Origin: Myxococcota bacterium
GTDB lineage: Bacteria > Myxococcota_A > UBA796 > GCA-2862545
DNA length: 14,020 nucleotides
Direction: 5' to 3'
Assembly (NCBI GenBank): GCA_039208735.1
Contig: JBCCQY010000199.1
Coordinates: 1-14,020 of the forward strand
How positions within the stretch are numbered: the first letter of the stretch is position 1; every line of letters starts with the position of its first letter. Under the pieces are notes generated by a model that did no database searches, was not told the DNA's origin, and was given only the letters and a program-made list of their open reading frames with translations. Below, one piece after another: positions 5,534 through 5,670 of the stretch. Position numbers and translations under genes: made by a program.

Positions 5534-5539
5534 TATACT
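5534..5539 (+). promoter_or_regulatory. Candidate sigma70-type -10 hexamer (TATACT) for the leader and ankyrin transcript
   Basis: TATACT in GC-rich context would place +1 near 5546, just before the structured leader. No well-spaced -35 (TTGAAT is 19 bp away). Confidence 0.4.
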
Positions 5540-5548
5540 GGAAGTGGC

Positions 5549-5667
5549 GAAGCCGGGCGCCCCCAGTCCGCGGAGAGGGAACGTCCCACCGGCCACCATC
5601 ATCGTGGATCCCTGCGCGATCCTCCTTGGGGCCCGCTCATGCGGACATCGGGCCATTCGGAGGCTCG
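5549..5667 (+). ncRNA. Putative structured cis-regulatory RNA leader of the ankyrin gene (no family recognised)
   Basis: Nested pairings read by eye: 5553-5562 with 5650-5660; GTCCGC 5566-5571 with GCGGAC 5641-5646; GGGA-acg-TCCC 5577-5587; GGCC(A)CCA 5591-5598 with TGGGGCC 5627-5633; GGATC 5606-5610 with GATCC 5618-5622. The outer stem overlaps SD GGAGG 5659-5663. Confidence 0.5.
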
Positions 5668-5670
5668 TCC

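Follow-up and report, generated by a model that had tools for sequence, protein, structure and literature searches.

A leader RNA upstream of an ankyrin gene

The locus described here lies in a 14,020-nucleotide stretch of Myxococcota DNA (the window) and raises the question of whether the roughly 125 bases that precede the start of an ankyrin gene form a regulatory RNA and, if so, which fold the RNA adopts and what reads it. A first-pass annotation had drawn nested helices across this leader, closing over the Shine-Dalgarno (SD) sequence, and the elements that it named (TATACT, GTCCGC/GCGGAC, GGGA/TCCC, the SD, and the ATG) are all found at the positions it gave. The leader is one copy of a widespread RNA, and its surroundings, all on the forward strand, are as follows.

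4530-5516: alpha/beta hydrolase gene, the upstream neighbor, sharing the leader's strand
5509-5514: TTGAAT, a weak −35-like hexamer with a 19-nt spacer to the −10 hexamer, starting 38 nt 5′ of helix P1
5534-5539: TATACT, a −10-like hexamer ending 7 nt 5′ of the conserved G of P1
5659-5663 and 5671: SD sequence GGAGG and ATG start codon
5671-5904: N-terminal helical domain (amino acids 1 to 78), uncharacterized, a candidate RNA binder
5671-7206: gene for a 511-amino-acid protein, the N-terminal domain being followed by ankyrin repeats from about residue 83

A promoter scan found no sigma-70 site with 16- to 18-nt spacing at the leader. In 133 of 166 homologs, a TAnnnT hexamer ends 6 to 9 nt 5′ of the conserved P1 G, and TTGAC/T starts mostly 35 to 39 nt upstream of P1. 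From this placement, the RNA is predicted to be the extreme 5′ end of its own transcript, with transcription in the window probably starting at about position 5546, at P1. The leader thus sits between a predicted promoter and the start codon of one class of gene. The window scan listed no terminator-like site between the hydrolase stop codon and the leader, and read-through from the hydrolase gene is possible.

Elsewhere in the window, a Fur-box match at 7340-7358 (forward strand; three mismatches in 19 against the consensus; 0/200 shuffles) precedes a flavodoxin/FAD/NAD-binding reductase gene (7594-9174) and, before it, a short piece at about 7431-7600 whose translation appears to resemble the beginning of a PepSY-type membrane protein. 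The locus may be under iron control, with its first gene broken. A 901-amino-acid lipoprotein-like protein (9184-11889, reverse strand) without a Pfam family is encoded divergently from an ECF sigma factor gene (11994-12479, forward strand), and a long protein with a Thr/Asp/Gly-rich low-complexity stretch, also without a Pfam family, is encoded at 1078-2484 (reverse strand).

The nested fold is drawable but not conserved

The nested helices can be drawn, and the minimum-energy fold of the window's leader resembles them, but they are not the structure that homologs retain. In 81 homologs, pair retention is 46% for the outer stem, 39% for the long arm, and 37% for the cap, and together the three helices are 42.6% paired compared with 42.8% in shuffled controls, 319 of 500 shuffles being equal or higher. 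With pairing at shuffle level, we rejected the nested fold as the conserved structure. The alternative SD pairing that had been suggested, CGAAGCC with GGCTCG, is likewise drawable and keeps 40% of its pairs in the same homologs. What survives of the earlier drawing is the GTCCGC/GCGGAC helix and the GGGA/TCCC hairpin; the other helices do not, and the conserved partner of the SD is not the outer stem but a local anti-SD, CCTCC, at 5621-5625.

The folding energy of the leader (−63.1 kcal/mol, against −59.6 ± 4.1 for shuffles, of which 33 of 200 equaled or bettered it; z = −0.86) did not support the proposal of a structured RNA either. Because the leader folds at shuffle level, single-sequence evidence alone would have sunk the finding.

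Homologs support a double pseudoknot

Covariation upstream of homologs proved strong, but for a different structure. The conserved fold is, on well-supported comparative grounds, predicted to be a double pseudoknot in which a 5′ hairpin is joined by a loop-loop GUCCGC/GCGGAC helix to a 3′ hairpin that pairs the SD. Its parts (forward strand), every pair of whose seven conserved helices is Watson-Crick in the window, are as follows.

5546-5549 / 5558-5561: P1, GGCG/CGCC, the hairpin at the predicted transcript 5′ end
5552-5556 / 5589-5593: PK1, a pseudoknot between the P1 loop (GCCGG) and CCGGC
5563-5564 / 5572-5573: two-pair helix, CC/GG, which displays GUCCGC in a small loop
5566-5571 / 5641-5646: PK2, the loop-loop helix GTCCGC/GCGGAC, with its partner strand in the loop of the 3′ hairpin
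5572-5576: purine-rich joint GGAGA, just 5′ of P3
5577-5580 / 5584-5587: P3, the GGGA/TCCC hairpin, with the top covariation in three analyses
5594-5615: variable linker, 14 to 46 nt in homologs and without conserved pairing
5616-5668: P4, the 3′ hairpin, comprising P4a and P4b
5621-5625 / 5659-5663: P4a, anti-SD CCTCC with SD GGAGG, covering the SD
5630-5635 / 5649-5654: P4b, GGCCCG/CGGGCC, the inner P4 helix

In an 82-row alignment collected from the protein side, 90.8% of cells were paired and 30 of 35 pairs had changed on both sides; in 87 held-out metagenome rows, the figures were 91.5% and 21 of 35. Both sets of counts are biased upward, because both alignments were fitted to a covariance model (R1) that contains P1, P3, and P4 and lacks PK1, PK2, and the two-pair helix, and in the held-out set the search pattern had already fixed the greater part of PK2 as well as the outer pairs of P3. 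Covariation was present for all seven helices, its score was matched by 0 of 500 shuffles in each alignment, and controls in which the partner strand was slid were only 41 to 51% paired.

PK1 and the two-pair helix were among the top column pairs in an unguided mutual-information scan. PK1 was 92 to 94% paired, with changes on both sides; the two-pair helix was 98 to 99% paired, with changes from C-G to A-U and G-C; and PK2 was 99.8% paired, with both-sided changes at five of its six pairs in the protein-first set. Compensatory changes recurred on a rough tree of the 80-amino-acid domain, on which the minimum numbers of pair-type changes were 7 and 14 at two P1 pairs, 14 to 15 at the outer pairs of PK1, 3 per pair in the two-pair helix, 2 to 3 at three PK2 pairs, and 13 and 4 in P4b. 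RNAalifold, which is unable to represent pseudoknots and for that reason misses the other helices, returned just P1, PK2, and P3.

The RNA and an N-terminal domain occur together

The first-pass annotation had suggested similar leaders before other genes of this ankyrin family, and searches for homologs confirmed the suggestion; its view that genes encoding the AQxxxAREYGFxSW domain have their SD closed over by an uncatalogued cis-regulatory RNA was also borne out, as was the conservation of that RNA. The link to the ankyrin family held for the N-terminal domain, which the RNA tracks, and not for the ankyrin repeats, which it does not.

We approached this association from both directions. Searching the GTDB collection (15 of its 64 parts) with the domain gave 552 relatives, and among the best 80 of these 552, in which the RNA was detected with a fuzzy core pattern and then with the covariance model, the full RNA preceded 74 of 78 evaluable domain genes (L041 and L068, for which upstream DNA was absent, were left out). 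The model scores in this search are circular, whereas the pattern count is not, because most of the loci had been used in building the model. Three of the four genes lacking the full RNA (L017, L018, and L025) share one identical upstream sequence without the RNA, and the fourth (L077) has the 3′ part only. The RNA-bearing loci come from about 12 phyla, as far as their labels indicate. A plasmid collection gave 10 matches, of which 7 of 8 examined fit the model; a Vibrio locus in that collection (L008) gave no model match and, by eye, keeps each helix with changed letters.

In the reverse direction, about 15,000 metagenome stretches fit the seed pattern. A core-only pattern applied to 1 of 64 metagenome parts yielded 120 loci, 104 of which were confirmed by the model, and in 99 of the 100 confirmed loci that could be evaluated (4 were without downstream DNA), the domain lay within 600 nt downstream. 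The sole exception, L191, has a domain-like start, after which the frame is lost. At all 16 unconfirmed pattern matches, the domain was absent.

We also counted both elements within two phyla. Among the 151 genomes in the phylum of genome G152, the RNA occurred in 13, with 14 matches, 13 of them directly preceding the domain and the 14th at a contig end. Of the 22 occurrences of the domain there, 13 follow the full RNA and 4 (L272, L277, L278, and L280) follow an incomplete or variant form of it, called by eye or on the strength of a weak model score; 2 have no RNA, 2 are internal copies, and 1 is a second copy within the same gene. In the window's own phylum, the RNA was found in 1 of 151 genomes, namely, that of the window, and the domain was found weakly in two others. 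The window's genome contained one R1 match and none to the model of the sister RNA described below, and tblastn, blastn, nhmmer, and a motif scan detected no paralog in it. Such a patchy module suggests lateral gain. A phage origin was rejected: viral contigs contained no relative of the domain, and of 26 pattern matches in viral DNA only one was genuine.

Several loci carry reduced leaders. At L250 (1383-1503) and L077 (2417-2503), the leader is reduced to the 3′ SD hairpin, L272 (1825-1978, reverse strand) has lost P3, and L252 has the 5′ half only; these are natural deletion variants of experimental use. L017, L018, and L025 come from three metagenome-assembled genomes with differing taxon labels, and their identity covers 272 nt at the start of the gene; the shared segment is possibly misbinned or mobile.

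The domain is a basic helical module with varied partners

Residues 1 to 80 of the window protein gave no Pfam match, and a search with amino acids 1 to 78 collected 2,318 representatives at an E value of ≤0.001. An AlphaFold prediction (pLDDT, 90.6) has four helices. Foldseek returned nothing at an E value of ≤0.001, the best VIA-align Z score was 4.2, and a sequence search of the PDB gave designed proteins or weak matches only, results that do not of themselves establish a new fold; matches to OST-HTH/LOTUS were weak (4 of 40 members; best E value, 0.0016).

In 156 proteins picked by likeness to the window's domain, the first domain copy begins within 30 residues in 150, and its mean net charge is +4.4, compared with −1.2 for later copies. 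R14, K15, K18, and R58 are near invariant in the first copy, and R34 is also conserved.

The C-terminal parts vary. Of 56 RNA-first proteins scanned for partners (at least 150 amino acids long, among the first 80 RNA-first loci), 40 had ankyrin repeats, 9 had no family, and 7 belonged to other families: Clp_N in two and WD40, LRR, FliG_C, DUF5990/DUF5655, and Glyoxalase_8 in one each. DUF1835 and a methyltransferase were further partners. We found no common theme and no conserved neighbor gene among 47 open reading frames (ORFs) in the downstream neighborhood, nor a metabolic or transport theme across the downstream genes. At L062, an EF-Ts-family piece (3430-3894) directly follows a 310-amino-acid domain-bearing frame without a Pfam family, and the two may be parts of a fusion, now split, between the domain and a translation-factor fold.

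A sister domain has a sister RNA

Six of 40 relatives of the domain matched Pfam Glyoxalase_8 (PF20066) weakly (best E value, 2.3e-4), and the RNA-first protein L113 passes the PF20066 cutoff. The window protein has no PF20066 match and its domain contains an extra helix, but the domain is homologous to about 55 positions at the N terminus of Glyoxalase_8 (hhalign probability, 96.2%; E value, 2.2e-9). Searching 201 genomes for PF20066 turned up 19 places, and a sister leader with the same skeleton was present at 17 of the 17 loci that scored above the cutoff and had the N-terminal part. It was not seen at the other two, one of which was below the cutoff, while the other (L297) lacks the N terminus. 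A search with the sister model gave two further strong matches, each preceding a Glyoxalase_8-type domain, and five weak matches (E values, 1e-4 to 7e-4) that were not the RNA. The sister leaders lie upstream of PF20066 genes at L285 to L296, L298 to L301, L303, L305, and L313.

The sister skeleton consists of a 5′ hairpin with a loop pseudoknot, a short helix, a six-pair loop-loop helix, and a 3′ hairpin. In a small set aligned with MAFFT, with the structure read by eye, 90% of cells were paired and the covariation score exceeded 500 of 500 shuffles. The two RNAs differ in the small hairpin, which precedes the GG(U)GAA joint in the sister RNA and follows the joint in the window's RNA, and neither covariance model detects the other RNA. 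The sister domain is fused to VOC, a ClpX-like zinc finger, a Lon-like part, and the C-terminal part of PF20066, the Lon and ClpX labels (L299, L301, and L303) being our reading of the sequences. A third version of the RNA, recognized by eye, is probable at L278 (1780-1920, reverse strand), L280, and L277 (1336-1472, forward strand), where the domain carries HALxVIAxE in place of DAQxVIARE.

The predicted fold occludes the SD

When isolated, positions 5616-5675 fold at −26.1 kcal/mol, and the SD is predicted to be paired in 163 of 164 isolated homologous 3′ hairpins (mean, −21.9 kcal/mol). In nested folds of 166 sequences, the SD was 34% paired when the PK2 helix was forced and 91% paired when P4b was forced, with a median gap of 3.4 kcal/mol in favor of P4, energies that cannot count pseudoknots. 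The window's nested ensemble is of the type drawn in the first-pass annotation, with the SD about half paired, and that nested fold may represent a nonconserved, SD-open alternative. Because covariation for an ON-specific helix is absent, the SD-open state is inferred; a conserved P2 extension, considered for that state, was rejected on its mean pairing probability of 0.03.

We propose the following mechanism. The transcript would begin at P1, and the ribosome-binding site would be paired within the 3′ hairpin, with an SD-open alternative perhaps a few kilocalories per mole away. The basic N-terminal domain would bind the folded leader and lock the closed fold, such that the protein would repress its own translation. 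The C-terminal part (ankyrin, LRR, WD40, Clp_N, Lon N, ClpX zinc finger, or VOC) would set the level of free domain, which might be tuned, for example, through partner binding or degradation of the C-terminal part.

Relation to known systems

In kind, the predicted function is a familiar one, that of an SD-occluding operator or riboswitch, and it is the family that appears to be uncatalogued. Rfam 15 gave no match to the window at an E value of ≤1, and at 18 homologous and 19 sister or variant loci, no leader matched near a gathering score; neither the window-type RNA nor the sister RNA is catalogued in Rfam.

Autogenous operators with pseudoknots include those of S4 in the alpha operon and of T4 gene 32. 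SAM-II, preQ1-II and -III, guanidine-III, and ZTP are translational riboswitches in which a pseudoknot holds the SD. Like these riboswitches, the window's RNA is a compact 5′ leader that contains pseudoknots, has invariant bases at its junctions, and is predicted to occlude the SD, but it has no Rfam match and no pathway-specific genes and is linked strictly to one domain. Closest among the operators is that of rpsO/S15 in Escherichia coli, an autogenous ribosomal-protein operator with a pseudoknot (PMC3985624). Here, too, a 5′ pseudoknot lies by the ribosome-binding site, before the gene of the proposed binder, and an alternative fold is available. In contrast, the window leader has two pseudoknots, one of them loop-loop, and no Rfam match; the downstream proteins of window-type leaders are nonribosomal, and the putative binder domain is fused to many unrelated partners.

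The COMPASS preprint (10.64898/2026.10.21.760802) describes, in the portion of its text consulted, candidate leaders such as cluster 630,527, which precedes glyoxalase, monooxygenase, and NmrA-like genes; an uncatalogued leader common to unrelated downstream proteins is the point of likeness. That portion mentions neither ankyrin nor DUF1835, and the associated database may contain the window-type or sister RNA. The consulted parts of the PMC2864571 supplements make no mention of ankyrin. The sbcD and Solibacter-1 motifs (Weinberg 2010) were rejected as matches, the first rows of their alignments being, by eye, different sequences. The family is not described in the parts consulted of the main text and one supplement file of PMC8632094 or in main-text passages of PMC5737381 and PMC11109978, the supplements of which may contain the motif. 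We found no description of the family in the literature covered; the supplements of the COMPASS preprint may also hold the motif.

What reads the leader?

We favor the reading that the leader and the domain together would constitute a portable autorepression unit, an autogenous operator, with a probability of roughly 0.55, because the basic N-terminal domain is the sole common downstream feature and the version of the RNA follows the version of the domain. The coupling of RNA and domain in both directions, despite varied C-terminal parts, counts for this reading. Against it, adjacency on the DNA would lead to coinheritance through domain swaps even if the domain did not bind, and the basic residues are kept at L282 and L250, which have no RNA or only the 3′ hairpin; the genomes of L282 and L250 each carry another, RNA-bearing copy of the domain.

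The near-invariant core of the RNA could equally be a ligand pocket, and the main rival is a translational riboswitch, in which the double-pseudoknot core would bind a metabolite or ion and hold or free the SD hairpin. In favor of such a switch, the tertiary fold is compact, its junction bases are near invariant, it occupies the predicted transcript 5′ end, it is coupled directly to SD pairing, and it is found in many phyla. We nevertheless consider it unlikely, since the downstream proteins and their neighbors have no metabolic or transport theme and the RNA tracks a single nonenzymatic domain, with which it shifts in the sister family.

Clp_N, the Lon N-domain, ClpX-type zinc fingers, and repeat scaffolds among the partners, together with the persistence of the domain without the RNA at some loci, would fit a stress or protein quality response in which the leader is read by a different factor, be it a chaperone, a protease subunit, the ribosome, or a trans-acting RNA, and the domain is a traveling interaction or degradation tag. 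The patchy distribution (1/151 and 13/151 genomes) suits a self-contained unit better than a host regulon, making this reading distinctly improbable. Still more doubtful is the suggestion that the RNA, whether released or retained, goes on to serve the protein structurally or catalytically, in a ribonucleoprotein or as a self-cleaving RNA: the fold is more elaborate than SD occlusion requires, has its own predicted promoter, and keeps its skeleton over two domain families, but it always runs into an SD and start codon with no terminator, and it has no Rfam ribozyme match.

A passive attenuator or ligand-free RNA thermometer would account for the near-universal predicted pairing of the SD in isolated 3′ hairpins and for anti-SD/SD pairs that are often U-A or U-G, yet it would leave the conserved 5′ half, the two pseudoknots, and the exclusive link to one domain unexplained, and given also the stability of these hairpins, we regard it as very improbable. 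Chance folding of GC-rich DNA, with which the single-sequence z score agrees, is refuted by the covariation score that no shuffle reached, the poorly paired slid-partner controls, and the compensatory changes that recur on the domain tree.

Implications

These results add a common RNA family that is missing from Rfam and whose fold is supported at nearly every helix. If the RNA is a riboswitch, it would be a widespread orphan hinting at an unknown signal. If, as the autogenous operator predicts, the domain binds the leader, the domain would be an RNA-binding fold of a new type and the pair a translational feedback device, in two parts, for arbitrary cargo, and the natural RNA-domain versions might be orthogonal and so useful in synthetic circuits. 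More tentatively, we suggest an undescribed superfamily in which a helical tag of 60 to 80 residues and its cognate double-pseudoknot leader, in at least two and probably three codiverged versions, have been grafted pairwise onto dozens of unrelated proteins, each of which would control its own translation by its free level. If true, this would provide a feedback sensor for partner binding or proteolysis in any recipient protein.
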